From: a virus
Lineage: Duplodnaviria; Heunggongvirae; Uroviricota; Caudoviricetes
IMG/VR virus record: IMGVR_UViG_3300015214_000024
Span: 73,787 to 137,786 of that record
Direction: 5' to 3' (one strand)
DNA: 64,000 bases
Shown: piece by piece, positions 32,606-57,308 of the stretch
How the letters are laid out: each line of letters begins with the position of its first letter
Numbering within the stretch: the first letter of the stretch is position 1
Position numbers and translations under genes: made by a program
Notes under the pieces: generated by a model
The model's input: the letters and a program-made list of their open reading frames with translations, nothing else
Databases searched by the model: none
Told to the model about the DNA's origin: nothing

Positions 32606-33637
32606 TTAAAGTGATAATGTTCTGTAGATATTCATTAGCAAATCTGAATCAATAGTATTACTATCGATTGAACTAATGTATTTCATAACAATGGAGTCAA
32701 CTGATTCAAGATCTGATTCTTCAACAGCCAAGTCATCATCCTGTTCTTCATAAACAGCACTAAGTGACAAATCTCTAGGGTCATAAGTCTTTTCTAGAAG
32801 ATCGCGCAAGTATGTTGACATTTCATATGTTAGAATCAAATCATTCTCAATTCTAATATATGTCATATCATCAATATATTTTGGAGGGTTCTTTAAAAGC
32901 TGTGAAAGTTTAATTTTTCGATACTTTGGCGCTTTTGGCCAAGATTTATATTGTGGAACTCCGCCCCATTCAAGCATACATATGCCGCGATCGTCATCCC
33001 AAGCGTCTGAAAAGTCGTGAGGAAAGCAGTTGCCAGTATAATGAATATTGCCTTTGATTTGTCTCTTATGGAAATGGCCTGAGAATACATATTCCGGCTT
33101 GGTGATATCTTCTGCTCGAAGTTCACCAGTGTCTGGCATCTCAACCATCGCATTCATTTTAAAATGCGGAAGCTCAAAATGTCCCATCATATACTTACAT
33201 TCAAGTTCTTTGACTTTTTTCCATTCGTCATTCACTAGCCACGGAACAATTGCTACTTGGCCTTCAAGGAAAATGTCTGATATGATATGTACATTGTCTA
33301 ATTGGCGACCAAACTCGATAGAATTAATTTCCCGTTTGTCGCGATAGTATAAGTCGTGGTTGCCAGTAATCAAATAAACATTTTTAAATGCTTTGCTGAG
33401 TCGCTCAATATTTGATATTGTATAGTTGATAGTGCTGACATTGATTCTTGCTCGGTTGTGGTGCCAATCACCATTGAAGAAACAAGTCTCTGCACCAAAC
33501 TTTTTAGCCTCTTCAATCATCCAGATAATGAAGTTTTCACAATCCACATTATGTTGGCGACTGTCATTGCTTTTCCCAAAGTGTATATCTGTAAAAATTA
33601 CAGCTTTTTCAAAAAGTTGATCAGTTGATACGTTCAT
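32606..33637 (-). CDS. 47: Recombination endonuclease nuclease subunit (gp47 / SbcD / Mre11-like)
   Basis: DIH, GDWHH, GNHD, GHFH metallophosphoesterase motifs; start reassigned to ATG 33637. Confidence 0.95.
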   Translation of the reverse strand: MNVSTDQLFEKAVIFTDIHFGKSNDSRQHNVDCENFIIWMIEEAKKFGAETCFFNGDWHHNRARINVSTINYTISNIERLSKAFKNVYLITGNHDLYYRDKREINSIEFGRQLDNVHIISDIFLEGQVAIVPWLVNDEWKKVKELECKYMMGHFELPHFKMNAMVEMPDTGELRAEDITKPEYVFSGHFHKRQIKGNIHYTGNCFPHDFSDAWDDDRGICMLEWGGVPQYKSWPKAPKYRKIKLSQLLKNPPKYIDDMTYIRIENDLILTYEMSTYLRDLLEKTYDPRDLSLSAVYEEQDDDLAVEESDLESVDSIVMKYISSIDSNTIDSDLLMNIYRTLSL

Positions 33638-33710
33638 GTATTTCTCTTTATTAGAAATTTCTACTAATGTTATATTAATGGTAGGCTGGCGAATAATCAA
33701 TATATTTTGG

Positions 33711-33926
33711 CTATATTTTTTTCCACATTGGATTATATGGATCACTACTTACATTGACGAATAATGTGCATCCCACTGGGTCGAACTGTATTTCGCCTAT
33801 GGATGGTGTCGAAACATAACCGTATCGAGTCTTGAACCCAATAACTTGATTCAAGTGTGGGAGATCGCCCCACTCTGGAAATGATCCAAATGTGGCATCT
33901 AGCCAATTTAATAGTCTTTTTTTCAC
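33711..33926 (-). CDS. Minigene C: leader plus capsid fragment QVIGFKTRYGY
   Basis: 3' part of ORF 33711..34169. GTG 33926 lies just after the upstream stop (ATG 33944 is an alternative). MKKRLLNWLDATFGSFP...NQVIGFKTRYGYV matches MCP EQVVGFTTRYGYL. Confidence 0.7.
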   Translation of the reverse strand: MKKRLLNWLDATFGSFPEWGDLPHLNQVIGFKTRYGYVSTPSIGEIQFDPVGCTLFVNVSSDPYNPMWKKI

Positions 33927-33930
33927 AGCA

Positions 33931-34794
33931 TTATTTCTCTTCATCAAAAAACAAATCAAACAAGTTCTCAACGAACGGTGTATATTTCTGTTTAGGTTTG
34001 CCTTCATTATTTTTTGCACGTTCATACTTGTCAAATTCACACATAACATTTTGCAAATCCTGTGCGTGGAACGGTTCGTCTTTAAAATGCTTGTTGACTT
34101 CTTTAAGTAATTTTTGCAAATGTAATAGCCAGTCGTCAGCCATCCAGGCATCATTTTTATTTCTACCAAAAACCCGATTTAAACCACGTTGTGATCCTGG
34201 TCCTGGTGCGGCCCAAGTCCACCAGTCAGATGCATTTTTTAATATTGGAGTATATTTCATATCAGCTACTACTTGAGCACCTGTAAAGCTTCCTACTCCA
34301 TAGCAAGAAAGTAATTTTTTATGGAAAGATTCCAAGGTATCATTCTTAGTGGGTCTTATTTTTGCTCGATTTTCCCACATTGGATTGAGTAGTTTTTGAA
34401 CAAGAAAATCTTGTTTTGGGCCAGACCAGTTTGGAGTGGCAATCATATATGCTGGATTGTAAATTTTAAGGTTTTTTGATTGTCGCATTGCCACCATATT
34501 GAGGAATTTGTCTGGATCCCAAGGAACCGGATATCCAAGGTCGCTCATTGAATCAATGTTATTTAAGGCCATTCTAGCTACAGCCATAGCGAACCACAGA
34601 TCTGGATCTAAATTATTAGGTTCTCGCCAGTTATCATTAATCCAAATAGTTACTCGGTCGTCTTCCCGACGCATATTACAAAACCGGTAGGTTTCAATAA
34701 TAGTGTCACCAATATATGGTACACCATTTAATTTTGCTTTACGGGCCTCCTCCCGTTTAGTGATGAACTCTACAACATCCTGATCTCGCATCAT
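33931..34794 (-). CDS. aGPT-Pplase clade 1 / 5-hmdU DNA kinase helical-domain-like protein
   Basis: YRFCNMRREDDRVT, GPGSQRGL, LQNVMCEFDKY motifs. Confidence 0.7.
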   Translation of the reverse strand: MMRDQDVVEFITKREEARKAKLNGVPYIGDTIIETYRFCNMRREDDRVTIWINDNWREPNNLDPDLWFAMAVARMALNNIDSMSDLGYPVPWDPDKFLNMVAMRQSKNLKIYNPAYMIATPNWSGPKQDFLVQKLLNPMWENRAKIRPTKNDTLESFHKKLLSCYGVGSFTGAQVVADMKYTPILKNASDWWTWAAPGPGSQRGLNRVFGRNKNDAWMADDWLLHLQKLLKEVNKHFKDEPFHAQDLQNVMCEFDKYERAKNNEGKPKQKYTPFVENLFDLFFDEEK

Positions 34795-35051
34795 TCTGAC
34801 TCACCATTAGGTTCATTATCATCTTCATCGTTTTCCTGGCTTCCTGTATATTTGGATCTTAATGAAAAAATAGAGGCAGTCGGACCAGTCATTGGTTGAA
34901 CCCCGCATATATCGTGAGCAATGATAGATGGCATCACTCTTCGAATAATTGGCAAAATAACTTTATCATATTGAGGTTTACACGCCTCATTTAATGATGG
35001 AAAAGTACCAAACCAATATTTCAACCAATTTTTGATTTTATTGATTATCAT
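34791..35051 (-). CDS. Minigene B: leader plus Gol-region capsid fragment
   Basis: KVILPIIRRVMPSIIAHDICGVQPMTGPTASIFSLRSKY is identical at 25 of 39 positions to this window's MCP. Confidence 0.85.
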   Translation of the reverse strand: MIINKIKNWLKYWFGTFPSLNEACKPQYDKVILPIIRRVMPSIIAHDICGVQPMTGPTASIFSLRSKYTGSQENDEDDNEPNGESE

Positions 35052-35292
35052 CGTGATGTTTCTTTAATAGTTCTGCCATTGTGAATGATTTGCCAGTTGT
35101 CATATCGACAATTTTTGTATTAGACAGATTGATAGTCAATGGAACATACGGACAATAGAAAGCAGAAGCATCGAACATCTGCTTTCCTTTGTAACCCAGG
35201 ATCAAACTAAAATGGTCATCAATATTAATTATTCGTCCGAAGTGTTTTTCGAACCAATTCTTAATTTTATTTAGATGGTGTTTCACTTTCAT
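35038..35292 (-). CDS. Minigene A: leader plus capsid fragment GYKG-x4-DASAFYCPYVPL
   Basis: ORF 35038..35346; likely start ATG 35292. Matches MCP GYKGEGTEVDAAAYYCPYIPL. Confidence 0.8.
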   Translation of the reverse strand: MKVKHHLNKIKNWFEKHFGRIINIDDHFSLILGYKGKQMFDASAFYCPYVPLTINLSNTKIVDMTTGKSFTMAELLKKHHDDNQ

Positions 35293-36208
35293 TAGGTTCG
35301 GCTTCTTTCTTAACTTTACCAAACATTCCCTTTTTACCATCAGCAACTTGCGGCATCATTCTGCGTGGCTTGTTTTTCTCTCTAAAATGACCATTGCTAA
35401 TGTGCCATTGGTCACTAGTTTCAAGCTCATTAGTAATTTGTCGACTCATTGATGGCGCTTGTCCACTATTTTCTAACAGGTCATCGCGCAAATCACGATC
35501 TTTCTTTTCAGTATTGAGAACACGTTTGAAGGTGTTATATACACACGTGGTTAAGAACGCGAATGGGTTTAACATAGTCCCGCGGGACTCGTTGAATTGA
35601 AGACCAACCATTGAGAGTTGGAGTAATGCTGAACTTTTCATATCGTCTAGATATGAATAATTTCGCCAGTTTGACTTCTGCCCAATCTTTTCAACCAATA
35701 GATAATACATTTTGCCAAGTTTCGCAGTGGTCCTACCGTGATCGGTTGAGAATTGACCATCCTGGGTGTGATGACTCTTTAGAACCGTTCGGACATCATC
35801 ACCATCAAATATTACGTGAATAAATGGTGGAAAATTAACTTTCATATATCCATCTGAGAGTTTTTTCTTCATTTTGTCATCGGGCCAGTTTGGATCAAGC
35901 GGTATGTGGTCAAATGACATAATTCGTATCACCAAGTCGTCTTTAGTCACAACGGGATCAGTTTCACCATATTCTTTAACCAATCGTTTTTCTCGGGTTT
36001 CAATCAAGCTTTCAATCCACGAATCAAAATCAACAAACATTGTTTTTTTGAATAAGTCTCGATTTGTTAGTATTTCGGGATTGTCGATAATAGTATCATA
36101 GTCTGTAAATTTTGGATCTTCATAATAACAGTAGGTCATTTTACTCTTGTGTATTTCTTTGACCAGATCCTTGTTGTTTAGGTAATTGGTAGTTGATCGT
36201 TTTGCCAT
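35267..36208 (-). CDS. 55: Late-transcription sigma factor (T4 gp55-like)
   Basis: NYLNNKDL, NWRNYSYLDDM, NPFAFLT...EKK motifs; 55-47-46 synteny. Confidence 0.85.
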   Translation of the reverse strand: MAKRSTTNYLNNKDLVKEIHKSKMTYCYYEDPKFTDYDTIIDNPEILTNRDLFKKTMFVDFDSWIESLIETREKRLVKEYGETDPVVTKDDLVIRIMSFDHIPLDPNWPDDKMKKKLSDGYMKVNFPPFIHVIFDGDDVRTVLKSHHTQDGQFSTDHGRTTAKLGKMYYLLVEKIGQKSNWRNYSYLDDMKSSALLQLSMVGLQFNESRGTMLNPFAFLTTCVYNTFKRVLNTEKKDRDLRDDLLENSGQAPSMSRQITNELETSDQWHISNGHFREKNKPRRMMPQVADGKKGMFGKVKKEAEPNESETPSK

Positions 36209-50972: not shown

Positions 50973-52700
50973 ATGGCATGGACTAAGCACTTTCAAAAAG
51001 TCAATTACAACCCAGCATATTATGGGCAAGGTCAACAAAATTTCAATGATCATTTAATGATGGATCATTCAAGTGCTCACACCAGCACTTTTGCTTCTTG
51101 GCTTCCAGACATCTATTCAGGACAACCAAATCGTATTGAACGTTATGGTCAATACGATTCAATGGATCTTGATAGTGAAGTTAACAGAGCACTTGATACT
51201 ATTGCTGACAGTTGCACCCAGGAAAATGCAGAAACTGGTATGGCTATTGAGTTGATACTTGACGAGCAAGCAGATTCGGAAGATGCTGTTATATTGAATG
51301 AAATGCTCAGGCAGTGGTATGAATTGAATGAATGGAAAAAAAGAATTTGGGGCGTTTTCCGTAATATGATCAAATATGGCGATCAATTAATGATTAGGGA
51401 TCCTGAATCACTCAAGTTGACTTGGGTGCAACCATCAGATGTTGATTCTATTATTGTTGATGAAGCTAAGGGCCGCGAGCCAGATTCATACTTGATTAAA
51501 AATTTATCAATTAATTTCCAAACATTAGTTGCAACTGATCCGTTGATTCAAAATAGTCCAAATACAATCGGAATGGCACCAAATATTCAAAATCGCTTCC
51601 CAGCATATAGTACGCCTGCTTTGGCAAATCCATTGCTTGGCCCTGGATCAGGAGGCAACGAAGGTGCATATCAAGTCAATGCTACACACGTAGTTCATTT
51701 TACATTGAGTCAAGGCACGGAAGCGTCTTGGCCATTTGGTGTTAGCGTTTTGGAAAACGTTTTTAAAGTGTATAAGCAGAAAGAACTTTTGGAAGAATCT
51801 GTTTTGATTTACCGAGTTCAGCGAGCACCAGAGCGACGAATATTTAAAATTCACACTGGTAAATTACCTCCACACAAGGCCGCGGCATTTCTTGAACGAA
51901 CAAAGAATGAAATTCAACAAAAGCGTATTCCAAATCGTGCAGGTGGAACCTCTGTTGTTGATGCTACATACAACCCAATGTCAATGCTAGAAGATTATTT
52001 CTTCGCTGTTGGTGAAGATGGTAAAGGATCAAGTGTGGAAACACTTGACGGTGGCCAACAATTGGGTGAAATTGATGACTTGAAATACTTTAACCACAAA
52101 TTTCGTATCGGACTTCGTGTTCCACGATCATATATGCCAGATTTTAATGATGGTGGTGGTGCAGTATTCAATGATGGCCGTGTTGGTACTGCCTATTTTG
52201 AAGAATATAGCTTTTCACGTTATTGCGAGAGACTTCAAAATATGTTTTCAGATCCAATGGATTTGGAATTTAAGATGTTTTGTAGAGCCCGCGGTGTCAA
52301 TATTCACGCCAGCTTGTTCAGTATTAGACTTGTTAAACCGCAAAATTTCTCCAAATATCGTCAAATTGAGCTTGATAATGCATTGATTGGATCATTTTCA
52401 AATATTAAAGATACTCGATTCATTAGTAAGAGAATGATGCTCATTAAATATTTAGGCTGGGACAATGATGACGTCCTATTAAATGAAAAATGGTTTGCTG
52501 AAGAAAATAGTAAAGGAACTACTGGTATGCCTGAACAAGGTGGCGGTGGTGGATCACTAAATAGTGGTGGTGAGCCACCTCTTGATTTAGAACCAGAAGT
52601 TGAACCATTGCCAGGTGAAGAAGGCGGTGAAGAAGCACCTGCTCCTGAAGAAGGCGGCGCTGCTCCTGAAGAAGGCGGTGAAGAGTCCGGCTTAATTTAA
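50973..52700 (+). CDS. 20: Portal protein (gp20-like)
   Basis: LIYRVQRAPERRIFKI, SMLEDYFF, VETLDGGQQLGEIDDLKYF. Confidence 0.95.
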   Translation: MAWTKHFQKVNYNPAYYGQGQQNFNDHLMMDHSSAHTSTFASWLPDIYSGQPNRIERYGQYDSMDLDSEVNRALDTIADSCTQENAETGMAIELILDEQADSEDAVILNEMLRQWYELNEWKKRIWGVFRNMIKYGDQLMIRDPESLKLTWVQPSDVDSIIVDEAKGREPDSYLIKNLSINFQTLVATDPLIQNSPNTIGMAPNIQNRFPAYSTPALANPLLGPGSGGNEGAYQVNATHVVHFTLSQGTEASWPFGVSVLENVFKVYKQKELLEESVLIYRVQRAPERRIFKIHTGKLPPHKAAAFLERTKNEIQQKRIPNRAGGTSVVDATYNPMSMLEDYFFAVGEDGKGSSVETLDGGQQLGEIDDLKYFNHKFRIGLRVPRSYMPDFNDGGGAVFNDGRVGTAYFEEYSFSRYCERLQNMFSDPMDLEFKMFCRARGVNIHASLFSIRLVKPQNFSKYRQIELDNALIGSFSNIKDTRFISKRMMLIKYLGWDNDDVLLNEKWFAEENSKGTTGMPEQGGGGGSLNSGGEPPLDLEPEVEPLPGEEGGEEAPAPEEGGAAPEEGGEESGLI

Positions 52701-52710
52701 GGATATTGGA

Positions 52711-52971
52711 ATGATTTTACGAGATCTTTTTGAAGCAGATGGTTCTGATAAAAGCAATAATGAAACACCAGATATGACTGTAGCAGGATATCAAGATCCT
52801 GCTCAGGACACGTTTGGATCCGTGCACGGAACTAATACCCACACGCCAAAATTATCATTAAAAGTTATCAACAATATGAAAAAAATAATGCAGGCTAAGA
52901 ACGCTGAATCTGAAAGAAGAAAAGAGCTTATGGCCATTATGTATGCTGCTCCACCATCCGAAGAAGGCTGA
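52711..52971 (+). CDS. Small head / prohead protein
   Basis: Lies between portal and core genes; N-terminus MILRDLFE. Confidence 0.6.
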   Translation: MILRDLFEADGSDKSNNETPDMTVAGYQDPAQDTFGSVHGTNTHTPKLSLKVINNMKKIMQAKNAESERRKELMAIMYAAPPSEEG

Positions 52972-53067
52972 TCCTTAGCTTAATCCTACATTTTTCTATC
53001 CATTCTATTAAATACCATATAATTGTATTGCGCGCAATCGCGCATCCCAAATATGGAGAAAGTAGAA

Positions 53068-54003
53068 ATGTCAAAAAGACAATTCCTTGAAGATATGGTC
53101 AATTCAATCATGGAAAACAAGATTGAAGATGCCCGCGAAAAATTCCACCAATTTGTTGTTGAATCTGCTCGCGAAATCCACGCATCATTAATTGAAACTG
53201 ATGAACTCGAAGACGATATTGACGACACTATGGAAGAATCATTTGAAGAAGTGGTTGAAACTGATAGTGACGAAGATACTGACTTTGGTGCTGACGTTGG
53301 CGTTGGTGGTGAAGATCTAAGCGATATGGGTGACGACGTAGATCCAGATATGGATGGTGATAACGACTCAGAAGAAGACCACGTTGAAGTTGAAGTAAAT
53401 GAACTTGACCAAGTTAAAGCTATGCTTGCAGACCTTCAAGCTAAGTTTGCTGAAATCACTGGCGAAGGTGAACCTGAAGAAGCAGGTGACGATTTCGGTG
53501 GCGAAGGCGAAGAAGTTGATATGGGTGATGAAGGTGAAGTTGAAGAAAGCGTTTTTGAAGCCGACGATATGGAAGGTGACAAGGACGAAGACGGAGATGA
53601 AGATTCTGACGACACTATGGAAGAATCAACCGATTTCGACTTAACTGAAGAAGATCTACTTGGTCTTGAAGAAGGTTGGTCAGAAGTTAAAGTCTCAATG
53701 GATGGCGGTGAACTTGATGGAAAGTTTGCAACTCCAGAAAAGACTGTCAAGACTCCAGTAGCTGACAAAGAAGAAAAAGAAGTAGACGCCAAAGATATGG
53801 TTTCAAAGCAAGATGCCCACAAAGGTTACGAGCGTGAAAAATCACCAGCAGTTGCACCTGCAAAGACCCACGCAACTAACATTATGACATCTGGTAAGAA
53901 AGCTTGGTCAGAAGAACATCCAAAAATGGACGGACAAGAACAAGGTGGCGGTAAATTCGCAACCCCAGAAAAGTCAAAGACAACACCAGTTGCTAAGAAG
54001 TAA
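53068..54003 (+). CDS. Highly acidic prohead core protein
   Basis: ORF 53023..54003; GGAG RBS before ATG 53068; D/E-rich; T4 gp67/68 position. Confidence 0.7.
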   Translation: MSKRQFLEDMVNSIMENKIEDAREKFHQFVVESAREIHASLIETDELEDDIDDTMEESFEEVVETDSDEDTDFGADVGVGGEDLSDMGDDVDPDMDGDNDSEEDHVEVEVNELDQVKAMLADLQAKFAEITGEGEPEEAGDDFGGEGEEVDMGDEGEVEESVFEADDMEGDKDEDGDEDSDDTMEESTDFDLTEEDLLGLEEGWSEVKVSMDGGELDGKFATPEKTVKTPVADKEEKEVDAKDMVSKQDAHKGYEREKSPAVAPAKTHATNIMTSGKKAWSEEHPKMDGQEQGGGKFATPEKSKTTPVAKK

Positions 54004-54027: not shown

Positions 54028-54636
54028 ATGTTACTAAATGAACATATGACATTTGGCCAAGCTGGTATCATTCGCGAGTCGGATGATAATAAGAATCTTT
54101 ACCTCAAGGGTTGTTTCATCCAAGGTGATGTAAGAAACCAGAATGGTCGCATTTATCCATTAAAGGAAATTTCGTCAGCTGTTGAAAAAATGACTGACAA
54201 AATTAAAAAAGGTTTCCCAATTTTGGGAGAATGCGATCATCCATCCGAATTAACTATTTCGTTAAAAAACGTTTCACACGTTATTACTGAGATACGTTTA
54301 GATGGTGCAGACGGTGTTGGTAAGATGAAAATTCTTGACACTGAATATGGTAGACTTGCTAAAACGTTGGTTGAGGCCGGAATTCCTTTAGGAGTTAGCT
54401 CAAGAGGTTCCGGTAATGTTGATGATCGTGGTTATGTTTCAGATTTTGAAATTGTAACCATTGATTTAGTTGCCACCCCATCAGCACCAGACGCATATCC
54501 AAGAGCAATATATGAAGCACTTGGCTTTAAGCACGGTGGTGATAAGATTCAAACTTTAGCAGAAGCTGTCAGACACGATCCGAAAGCTCAAAAATATCTT
54601 TCAAAAGGTATAGTTGAGTGGTTTAAAAGCCTTTAA
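54028..54636 (+). CDS. 21: Prohead protease (gp21-like)
   Basis: NQNGRIYP, LGECDHP, GVSSRGSG, DLVATPSAPDAY. Confidence 0.95.
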   Translation: MLLNEHMTFGQAGIIRESDDNKNLYLKGCFIQGDVRNQNGRIYPLKEISSAVEKMTDKIKKGFPILGECDHPSELTISLKNVSHVITEIRLDGADGVGKMKILDTEYGRLAKTLVEAGIPLGVSSRGSGNVDDRGYVSDFEIVTIDLVATPSAPDAYPRAIYEALGFKHGGDKIQTLAEAVRHDPKAQKYLSKGIVEWFKSL

Positions 54637-56108: not shown

Positions 56109-57308
56109 ATGTCTAAACTCTTTGAATCCAAATGGCAGCAAACCAAAGAGACCCTTCTTGAAGGTCTCGAAGGTCAACGCCGCAATACTATGGGTGTAGT
56201 CCTCGACAACACACGCAACAGCCTTGGCGCTGGCCGTGGTTTCTTGGCAGAATCCGCAACACCAGGTGCAACATCAGCAGGTAACGTAGCAACCCTTAAT
56301 AAGGTTATCCTCCCAGTTATCCGCCGTGTTATGCCAACCGTTATCGCTAACGAATTGATTGGCGTTCAGCCAATGACTGGCCCAGTTGGTCAGATCCACA
56401 CTTTGCGCGTTCGTTACGCTGATACTTTCGGTTCACCAACCGCAGTTACCGCTGGTACTGAAGCCCTCGGTCCATTCGAAATGGCTAAGTTCTACTCAGG
56501 TAACGGTGATAGTGCAAGCCCAGCAGCAGCTGATACTTCAACTCTTGAAGGTTTGCCAGGTAACCGTATCCAAGTTCAAGTCCTTCGTGAAACCGTCGAA
56601 GCTAAGACCCGCAAGCTATCAGCTCGCTGGACCCCAGAAGCTTCACAAGACGCAATGGCACAACAAGGCATTGATCTTGAAACTGAAATCACCGCTGCTT
56701 TGGCACAGGAAATCACCGCAGAAATCGACCAAACAATTTTGGCTAACCTCCGCGCTCTTCCAGGTGCTCCAGCCGTAACTTACGATCAGAACCTCGTTTC
56801 TGGTACTGCAACTTACGTTGGTGACGAACACGCTGCACTTGCAACCTTAATTATGCACCGCGCTAACGTTATCGCTCAGCGTACACGTCGTGGCGTTGGT
56901 AACTGGGTTGTTGTTTCCCCAACTGCTTTGACTGTATTGCAGTCAGCTTCAACTTCAGCTTTCGCTCGTACCACTGAAGGTACATTCCAAGGCCCAACAA
57001 ACACCAAGTTTGTCGGCGTTTTGAACAGCAGCATGAAAGTTTATGTTGACCAGTTTGCTAACGACACAACTCCAGTTCTCGTCGGTTACAAGGGCGAAGG
57101 TACAGAAGTTGACGCAGCAGCATATTACTGCCCATACATTCCATTGATGAGCTCAGGTATCCTAACAGATCCTAACACACTTGAACAAGTTGTTGGTTTC
57201 ACCACACGTTATGGTTACTTGGCACTCACCAACAGCGCAAGCAGCTTCGGTAACGCAGCTGACTACTTGGGCTTGATCGGTATGTCAGCAAATACCCGTT
57301 TCTTCTAA
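56109..57308 (+). CDS. 23: Major capsid protein (gp23-like)
   Basis: IRRVMP..IA..LIGVQPMTGP, KTRKLSARWT, EITAEID, GYKG..DAAAYYCPY, GFTTRYG; high-expression codon bias. Confidence 0.97.
   Translation: MSKLFESKWQQTKETLLEGLEGQRRNTMGVVLDNTRNSLGAGRGFLAESATPGATSAGNVATLNKVILPVIRRVMPTVIANELIGVQPMTGPVGQIHTLRVRYADTFGSPTAVTAGTEALGPFEMAKFYSGNGDSASPAAADTSTLEGLPGNRIQVQVLRETVEAKTRKLSARWTPEASQDAMAQQGIDLETEITAALAQEITAEIDQTILANLRALPGAPAVTYDQNLVSGTATYVGDEHAALATLIMHRANVIAQRTRRGVGNWVVVSPTALTVLQSASTSAFARTTEGTFQGPTNTKFVGVLNSSMKVYVDQFANDTTPVLVGYKGEGTEVDAAAYYCPYIPLMSSGILTDPNTLEQVVGFTTRYGYLALTNSASSFGNAADYLGLIGMSANTRFF

Follow-up and report, generated by a model that had tools for sequence, protein, structure and literature searches.

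Why should a giant phage keep, in addition to an intact major capsid gene, a set of very small genes that each carry a different conserved piece of the capsid protein? The question is raised by a 64,000-nucleotide stretch of a tailed-phage genome (positions 73,787 to 137,786 of IMG/VR record IMGVR_UViG_3300015214_000024; hereafter the window), which lies in a single 455,147-bp contig. Three minus-strand minigenes, here called A, B and C, stand between the genes for a gp55-type late sigma factor and a gp47/SbcD-like nuclease subunit. An earlier reading of the DNA letters, the sequence-only reading, had proposed that they join a shared leader to different pieces of a gp23-type capsid protein, and the sequence, the list of open reading frames and BLASTP all bear this out. 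As judged from their sequences, A, B and C are members of a small-protein family whose coding sequence is under purifying selection, and relatives extend the design to pieces of other head proteins. We tentatively favor the view that the products are mimic peptides that block host sensors of head proteins. The minigenes, their leaders and the resident capsid gene are as follows.

35292..35038, minus strand: minigene A, 84 amino acids; leader at residues 7-19, a capsid block and the tail SFTMAELLKK
35051..34791, minus strand: minigene B, 86 amino acids; leader at residues 3-15, then FPSLNEACKP, capsid block 64-103 (resident capsid numbering) and an acidic tail
33944..33711, minus strand: minigene C, 77 amino acids; leader at residues 8-20, then SFPEW, capsid block 358-372 (GFKTRYGY) and a beta-rich tail
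35236..35274, minus strand: leader of A, LNKIKNWFEKHFG
35007..35045, minus strand: leader of B, INKIKNWLKYWFG
33885..33923, minus strand: leader of C, KKRLLNWLDATFG
56109..57308, plus strand: resident major capsid protein, intact, 399 amino acids (Pfam Gp23, E-value 4e-88)

All three minigene products match the resident capsid protein in BLASTP: B at 25/40 residues (E-value 1e-17; 63% identity over the core), A at 14/29 (E-value 5e-8) and C at 10/15 (E-value 4e-5). The Pfam Gp23 profile (PF07068, 376 positions, cut-off 24.4 bits) recognizes B over positions 3-49 (E-value 8e-17, 62 bits) and A over positions 303-334 (E-value 7e-7, 29 bits); C has no Pfam match, and its capsid likeness is visible only by BLASTP against the resident protein. 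The A block corresponds to resident residues 318-346, reaching to ~309 in relatives, and has the motif GYKG..D..AFYCPYVPL. A tblastn search of the whole 455-kb genome with the capsid protein found three extra pieces only, namely A, B and C. The resident gene is indeed intact, as had been claimed: besides its Pfam match, an AlphaFold2 model of the protein reached a predicted local distance difference test score (pLDDT) of 82, with T4 gp23 chains as the best PDB matches. At 77-86 amino acids, the minigene products contain no complete shell-forming HK97-fold domain; they are homologous to gp23 yet are not capsid proteins.

On the capsid model, the B core runs from the last part of the N-arm helix (57-83) through the G-V-Q-P-M turn and along the first long strand (93-103), which is the first E-loop strand. 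The A core comprises strands 309-313, 323-326 and 338-353, and the C core strand 360-372. By analogy with the HK97 fold, these elements would belong to the N-arm and the P-domain sheet. AlphaFold2 prediction of C itself gave a pLDDT of 58 and modelled only the leader helix and a small beta tail, and structure atlas look-ups for C and A returned weak leads only (PTL_trimer and T4 neck-protein folds, template modelling scores of 0.43-0.45). A prediction of the A+C+B complex from family alignments scored 0.00, which speaks neither for nor against a reassembled subdomain.

The pieces have kept their protein sequence while their DNA diverged. Across 104 capsid proteins, 17 positions of the stretch are conserved at 60% or more, and B matches the family consensus at 14 of them. 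B uses the same codon as the capsid gene at 9/25 identical residues, with a nucleotide identity of 58%. These last figures agree with what had been noticed earlier, that the amino acids of B are kept and its synonymous sites diverged, and they mark the duplication as old, its protein sequence having been maintained. The idea that the pieces are of T4 type and not of the resident type finds no support. Every piece has its closest capsid proteins within the clade to which the phage belongs. Of 104 capsid proteins, that of T4 comes 24th to 76th for the A and B pieces and 16th for the short pieces of C, so the pieces arose within the lineage and not by capture from T4-type phages. The tail of A resembles the capsid propeptide motif (residues 26-38), and a motif like the propeptide T-M-x-x-V-L-D/E-N-T ends most A proteins and some B homologs. 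The tail of C is conserved and beta-rich (G-E/D-I-x-F-D ... F-V-N-V-S-S-D-P-x-N-P-x-W) and has no significant source protein in the genome.

The leader is peculiar to the minigenes. A six-frame search of the 455-kb genome with the pattern K-I-K-N-W-x4-F-G returned A, B, C and one match in a stop-ridden frame. In the family, whose members run 46-126 residues, the leader takes the form K-I/L-K-D/N-W/F-x4-F/I-G, often followed by S-F-P-x-W/F, and is predicted to be helical and amphipathic. A and B are 229-nucleotide tandem units which, placed in register, share 20 nucleotides at 90% identity in the leaders and 17 nucleotides at 82% in the acidic 3' ends. When a leader profile was compared with capsid proteins, the best matches fell within the first 20 residues in 22/44 cases. 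These matches are weak (at most 3.7 bits), far too low to claim common origin. Only their positions suggest that the leader could come from the N-terminus of the capsid protein or from the FGSFLTE stretch of T4, an idea that was set aside.

A homolog search of B against 5.8 billion proteins found small homologs of 80-124 amino acids that are 58-73% identical, all of them with the leader. Relatives of A and C were identified only via the neighbors of B; word-based homolog searches found nothing for A beyond itself and one 62%-identical homolog for C. Comparison of the contig loci (L003/L005, L006/L007, L008, L009, L010, L047 and L048) revealed at least seven distinct cassette versions in related metagenomic contigs, each directly after gp55. 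The cassette is followed by gp47 in every related contig that reaches that far, and the gp55 proteins of these loci, where measured, are 78-89% identical to that of the window. Minigene copy number varies from 3 to 5 across cassettes, with five leader genes in L010 and L047. Both long strands (338-353 and 360-372) are found in the A protein of L006, and the C protein of this locus is without a capsid block.

The extra genes of L010 and L047 show that the cargo is not limited to the capsid protein. One of them (46-49 amino acids) contains Y-N-P-M-x-M-L-E-D-Y-F-F, and a relative's 49-amino-acid gene matches residues 330-349 of this phage's portal protein at 13/20 positions (E-value 1e-8). The other (77 amino acids) matches the following protein at 13/37 positions (E-value 1e-6). 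Both extra genes recur in a second lineage.

53023-54003, plus strand: acidic protein, 326 amino acids, extremely acidic, between the portal (50973-52700) and prohead protease (54028-54636) genes

The cargo source is the N-terminal part of this protein, whose gene has the map position of T4 gp67/gp68. The window's own genome contains no portal or core-protein pieces. Because such pieces are found in two lineages, the family is better described as a leader plus a conserved head-protein piece, and the design of a shared leader with different conserved pieces, first recognized in A, B and C, thus reaches further than had been supposed.

That the cargo is limited to head-morphogenesis proteins suggests one alternative, namely that the products are accessory factors for the phage's own head: leader-tethered pieces that help the giant prohead to nucleate, set its timing or size, or keep head proteins ready for chaperones. 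The acidic tail of B, which recalls T4 gp67, and the weak leader-profile matches in the first 20 capsid residues (22/44) would agree with this, as would the end of the window B leader, L-N-E|A, which fits the gp21 cleavage rule L/I-x-E, and a B-like gene near DnaJ, ClpB and deformylase genes in another phage lineage. The cleavage motif is, however, missing from A, C and several B homologs: L-N-E|A is found only in window B, and other B homologs have F-x-E, F-E-K or I-D-D. The cassette also lies in the gp55-gp47 run, at a distance from the head module and outside the interval from portal to protease; the gp67/gp68 slot of this phage holds other genes (52711-54003), ~16-19 kb from the minigenes. 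A gene number of 3-5 and divergence faster than the flanks are unusual for a core assembly part, and gp55 relatives at 38-43% identity are without capsid fragments within 4 kb. Taken together, we consider a role in the phage's own head assembly rather unlikely.

Several small genes outside the cassette resemble its parts. In L048 (2094-2474), the B frame extends upstream through a capsid-propeptide-like V-L-L-T-N-T..S-L before the leader, giving a 119-126-amino-acid form. Other small metagenome proteins have the same core, which corresponds to the Gol region of T4 gp23, joined to unrelated N- or C-terminal parts; the gene for one of them stands just past the capsid gene. An 87-amino-acid protein with this Gol-type core is encoded in another phage lineage (L011:5001-5264 and L046:6001-6264), three genes from DnaJ, peptide deformylase and ClpB-like genes; the L011/L046 contigs, from at least two samples, stop ~170 nucleotides or less after this gene, as an assembler would at a repeat. 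In PHROG 12830, a 128-position profile, the last ~33 positions match the Gol-type core. In L045 (6001-6414), a 137-amino-acid gene like the N-terminal third of the capsid protein is located ~1 kb downstream of an intact capsid gene, from which an opposite-strand 284-amino-acid gene separates it.

Searches of other collections did not turn up the cassette. When A, B and C were compared by tblastn with 50,697 phage records, A and B matched full-length capsid genes only, C matched nothing, and no record has the cassette. In IMG/VR the only gp55 relatives were distant ones (38-43% identity), and the 4 kb around them held no capsid fragments; a scan of Joint Genome Institute (JGI) metagenomes found no cassette. 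The small T4 open reading frames a-gt.2 to a-gt.5, at the same map position, have no obvious likeness to the leader or the capsid pieces when their translations are read by eye. PADLOC gave no match. The runs that hold the window in full are landfill metagenomes, and distant DNA matches of its gp47 and capsid-like stretches are to 121Q/PBECO4- and Rak2-type jumbo phages.

Are these genes maintained for their proteins? No minigene frame is broken in any of the cassette versions, of which there are at least seven, even though most pairs are close to saturation at synonymous sites (synonymous divergence, dS, from 0.5 to saturated). Where dS can be estimated, the ratio of nonsynonymous to synonymous divergence (dN/dS) is 0.08-0.31 for A, 0.07-0.40 for B (0.09-0.21 in closer pairs) and 0.17-0.65 for C; it is 0.23 for the core-piece gene, and the portal-fragment pair has a saturated dS with a dN of 0.295. 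The sequence-only reading had argued for protein-level selection over debris and had suggested looking for leader-plus-fragment genes in relatives and computing their dN/dS. The outcome, with no frameshifted homologs and ratios below 1, agrees with that argument. Debris, whether in the form of duplicated head genes in decay or of patches of homology at the DNA level without protein function, might be suspected in a plasticity region, where T4 has small unrelated open reading frames and a DNA-modification gene between genes 55 and 47, and from the poor structure predictions for the minigene peptides. It is made highly improbable by the intact frames, the low dN/dS and the conserved overlapping starts and stops; the 58% nucleotide identity to the resident capsid gene is moreover too low for homologous exchange.

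Under this constraint the minigenes nevertheless change quickly. Minigene dN is 0.04-0.76, as compared with 0.04-0.19 for gp55 and gp47, so that the minigene proteins change several times faster, and the cassette is the most divergent stretch of its neighborhood. L003 and L008 agree at 100% of positions over ~1.3 kb of gp55 and at 80-93% in the flanking genes, whereas their cassettes are 61-80% identical; in this pair dS is 0.03 for gp55 as against 0.79 for A, 2.3 for B and saturation for C. The identical ~1.3 kb (L003:4400-5650) looks like a recent recombination tract that ends at the start of the cassette. The divergence of the cassette and its copy number of 3-5 point to exchange of divergent alleles at the locus, and this variability fits a conflict locus, short of proof.

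A hypervariable locus is also what speaks for an interference weapon. Here, dominant-negative fragments would poison the head assembly of co-infecting related phages or of capsid-hijacking satellites through capsid-capsid, portal-portal and core-capsid interfaces. The cargo comes from three proteins that T4 work puts together at prohead initiation, and the pieces map to the N-arm helix and to long strands near the capsid C-terminus. Inhibition through titration of binding partners is common among fragments of oligomeric proteins (PMC11831152; 10.1101/2022.01.04.474984), and RTL8 acting against PEG10 particles is a natural eukaryotic case. Yet the capsid proteins most similar to the pieces come from the phage's own clade, and with a B core 63% identical to the resident capsid protein, self-poisoning would need to be avoided. 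The phage is uncultured, and neither a competitor nor a satellite of it is known. This explanation therefore appears doubtful to us.

The genes around the minigenes bear on when the family is expressed.

35267..36208, minus strand: gp55-type late sigma factor (phrog_12791, E-value 9e-70), first gene of the run
33931..34794, minus strand: gene of the 5-hydroxymethyldeoxyuridine (5-hmdU) DNA kinase helical-domain family, 287 amino acids (PF18723, E-value 7e-36), between B and C
32606..33640, minus strand: gp47/SbcD-like nuclease subunit (phrog_100, E-value 7e-62), likely true start at an ATG near 33640

The minigenes had been described as tightly packed with their neighbors. This is correct: the A start codon lies inside the last codons of gp55, and A overlaps B by 14 nucleotides. 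One correction concerns the 287-amino-acid kinase-like gene that stands between B and C. That gene shares an ATGA with B, overlaps C by 14 nucleotides and is outside the minigene family. C is the 3' third of a spurious 152-amino-acid call, the remainder of which overlaps the kinase-like gene. All related contigs examined are without the kinase-like gene, and a contig from one further run joins 34817 to 33893, skipping the 923 nucleotides in between, and so lacks it as well; among the contigs compared, the insertion is therefore specific to this phage. The ~70-nucleotide spacer from C to gp47 is 92-96% identical between L003 and L008.

Three further features of this neighborhood were noted. A 17-nucleotide direct repeat (94% identity) occurs in the tail of C (33718-33734) and in the kinase-like gene (34370-34386), both copies encoding N-P-M-W; it may be due to chance, or be microhomology from insertion of the kinase-like gene. 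In T4, the same gene 55 to gene 47 map position holds a different DNA-modification gene, a-gt. At the gp55 C-terminus (35267-35360), the motif D-G-K-K-G-M-F-G-x-x-K-K-E is invariant in the clade where T4 gp55 has S-L-D-F-L-Y, which makes it a possible candidate for a clade-specific clamp-binding tail.

The minigenes and gp55 form one run of overlapping genes on the same strand. In T4, expression of gene 55 precedes that of the late head genes, and for this reason the minigenes too are likely expressed ahead of the late head genes. In one run labelled as a metatranscriptome, contigs extend over gp55, A, B and part of C, with DNA carry-over possible.

The same arrangement, in which the minigenes directly follow and overlap gp55, raises the idea of clamp-tethered regulators. 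The leader would be a clamp- or RNA-polymerase-binding motif, and the pieces would report free head proteins to gp55-dependent late transcription. The C-terminal tails of T4 gp43 and gp55 bind the gp45 clamp. The leaders of C proteins read W-L-D-x-x-F-G; T4 gp43 ends in S-L-D-F-L-F-G, and T4 gp55 in S-L-D-F-L-Y plus four residues. This likeness amounts to 4/7 positions and concerns C only. A T4-type clamp tail is a C-terminal S-L-D-F-L-F/Y, whereas the leader is N-terminal and only C leaders have L-D-x-x-F-G. We regard such regulation as improbable.

How, then, could leader-tethered pieces of head proteins serve the phage? Since residues retained in the full proteins are retained in the pieces as well, molecular mimicry seems the most likely mechanism: each piece would bind what its native segment binds, and the leader would supply a common second function. 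The highest-ranked targets would be host factors that recognize newly made head proteins, for example EF-Tu-dependent Lit-type systems and other capsid- or portal-triggered sensors. The peptides would act as non-activating competitors and blunt the defenses that head proteins trigger. The most conserved capsid and portal segments are hard for a phage to mutate, and bacterial immune sensors exploit them. A role as defense antagonist is ranked first because capsid and portal proteins are recurrent triggers, because B represents the one known trigger region of peptide size and because the locus behaves as in an arms race. Capsid and portal proteins are listed among the recurrent triggers of CapRel, Avs, SpbK, Thoeris and CBASS in a 2026 review (PMC13728456). 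Gol is described in a review as a 29-residue peptide from the most conserved region of gp23, within the first quarter of the protein; it is reported to act alone, bind EF-Tu and activate the Lit protease (PMC3014915).

A number of points weigh against the mimicry of defense triggers and explain why we hold it as a tentative possibility. Lit is activated, not blocked, by free Gol peptide, and a decoy would therefore have to bind in a non-activating way. Sensors of the Avs type are described as closing around whole folds, something that a piece of 20-40 residues is unable to mimic. The core-protein cargo is no known immune trigger. In two lineages the capsid block of C is replaced and its tail kept, and thus the capsid piece is not always the selected part. 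The timing of the minigenes is deduced from gene order alone, and a promoter search identified none for the cassette: TATAAATA occurs once in the window, away from the cassette; TAACATAA, which is found before the scaffold and capsid genes, is not enriched; and a scan for sigma-70-like promoters stayed at chance level. The choice of target is a guess.

Mimicry of head-protein triggers can be taken one step further, in a form that we consider speculative and on the whole unlikely. The cassette might be an exchangeable display rack in which a constant leader and a short tail receive the most conserved and least mutable pieces of any head protein. Such a rack would provide a repertoire of antagonists, made before the head, against Lit/EF-Tu, CapRel-, Avs- and SpbK-type sensors, its alleles being traded between giant phages. 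If true, it would be a phage counterpart to immune sensing of the core phage proteome.

Whichever reading applies, the minigene family points to an unrecognized layer of phage biology, which could be counter-defense by trigger mimicry, natural dominant-negative phage warfare or a new control of head assembly in giant capsids. The Gol region is the best-conserved part of gp23, and the minigene peptides offer a direct handle on an old question, that of what this region binds in ordinary infections.

Among known systems, the closest to B is Gol itself. The B core aligns to conserved T4 gp23 residues ~96-134, in the first quarter of the protein, with 19/37 identities, and by its position in this alignment B is a Gol-region peptide. 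A Gol peptide is defined as well by its binding to EF-Tu domains II/III and its activation of the Lit protease. Gol forms part of the capsid protein, whereas B has a gene to itself, with a leader, an acidic tail and sister genes that carry other pieces. The minigene products resemble T4 gp67 and gp68, of which gp67 has an acidic tail, in being small proteins linked to head assembly, and T4 internal proteins in having a short N-terminal leader common to varied cargo (PMC9026906). The T4 capsid-targeting sequence (IPI-III, Alt) differs in that it ends in a gp21 site and in that its genes lie in the head module. The cargo here consists of copied pieces of other head proteins, unlike that of either gp67/gp68 or the internal proteins.

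A likeness to dominant-negative fragments, in which a short piece of an oligomeric protein binds its partner and inhibits (PMC11831152; 10.1101/2022.01.04.474984; 10.1101/2023.02.03.527044), is proposed for the minigenes. The fragments of the E. coli screens are laboratory constructs, however, and RTL8 is a gag-like gene of eukaryotes; the literature searched yielded no natural family of genes for dominant-negative fragments in phages. Likewise, neither the literature on capsid or portal fragment genes, decoys and anti-defense nor the family libraries searched contained a description of a leader plus head-protein-piece family, in agreement with the earlier impression that such a cassette had not been described. 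We therefore rate the design, one leader with different conserved head-protein pieces, as a new kind, to which the nearest published counterparts are the Gol peptide and engineered inhibitory fragments.

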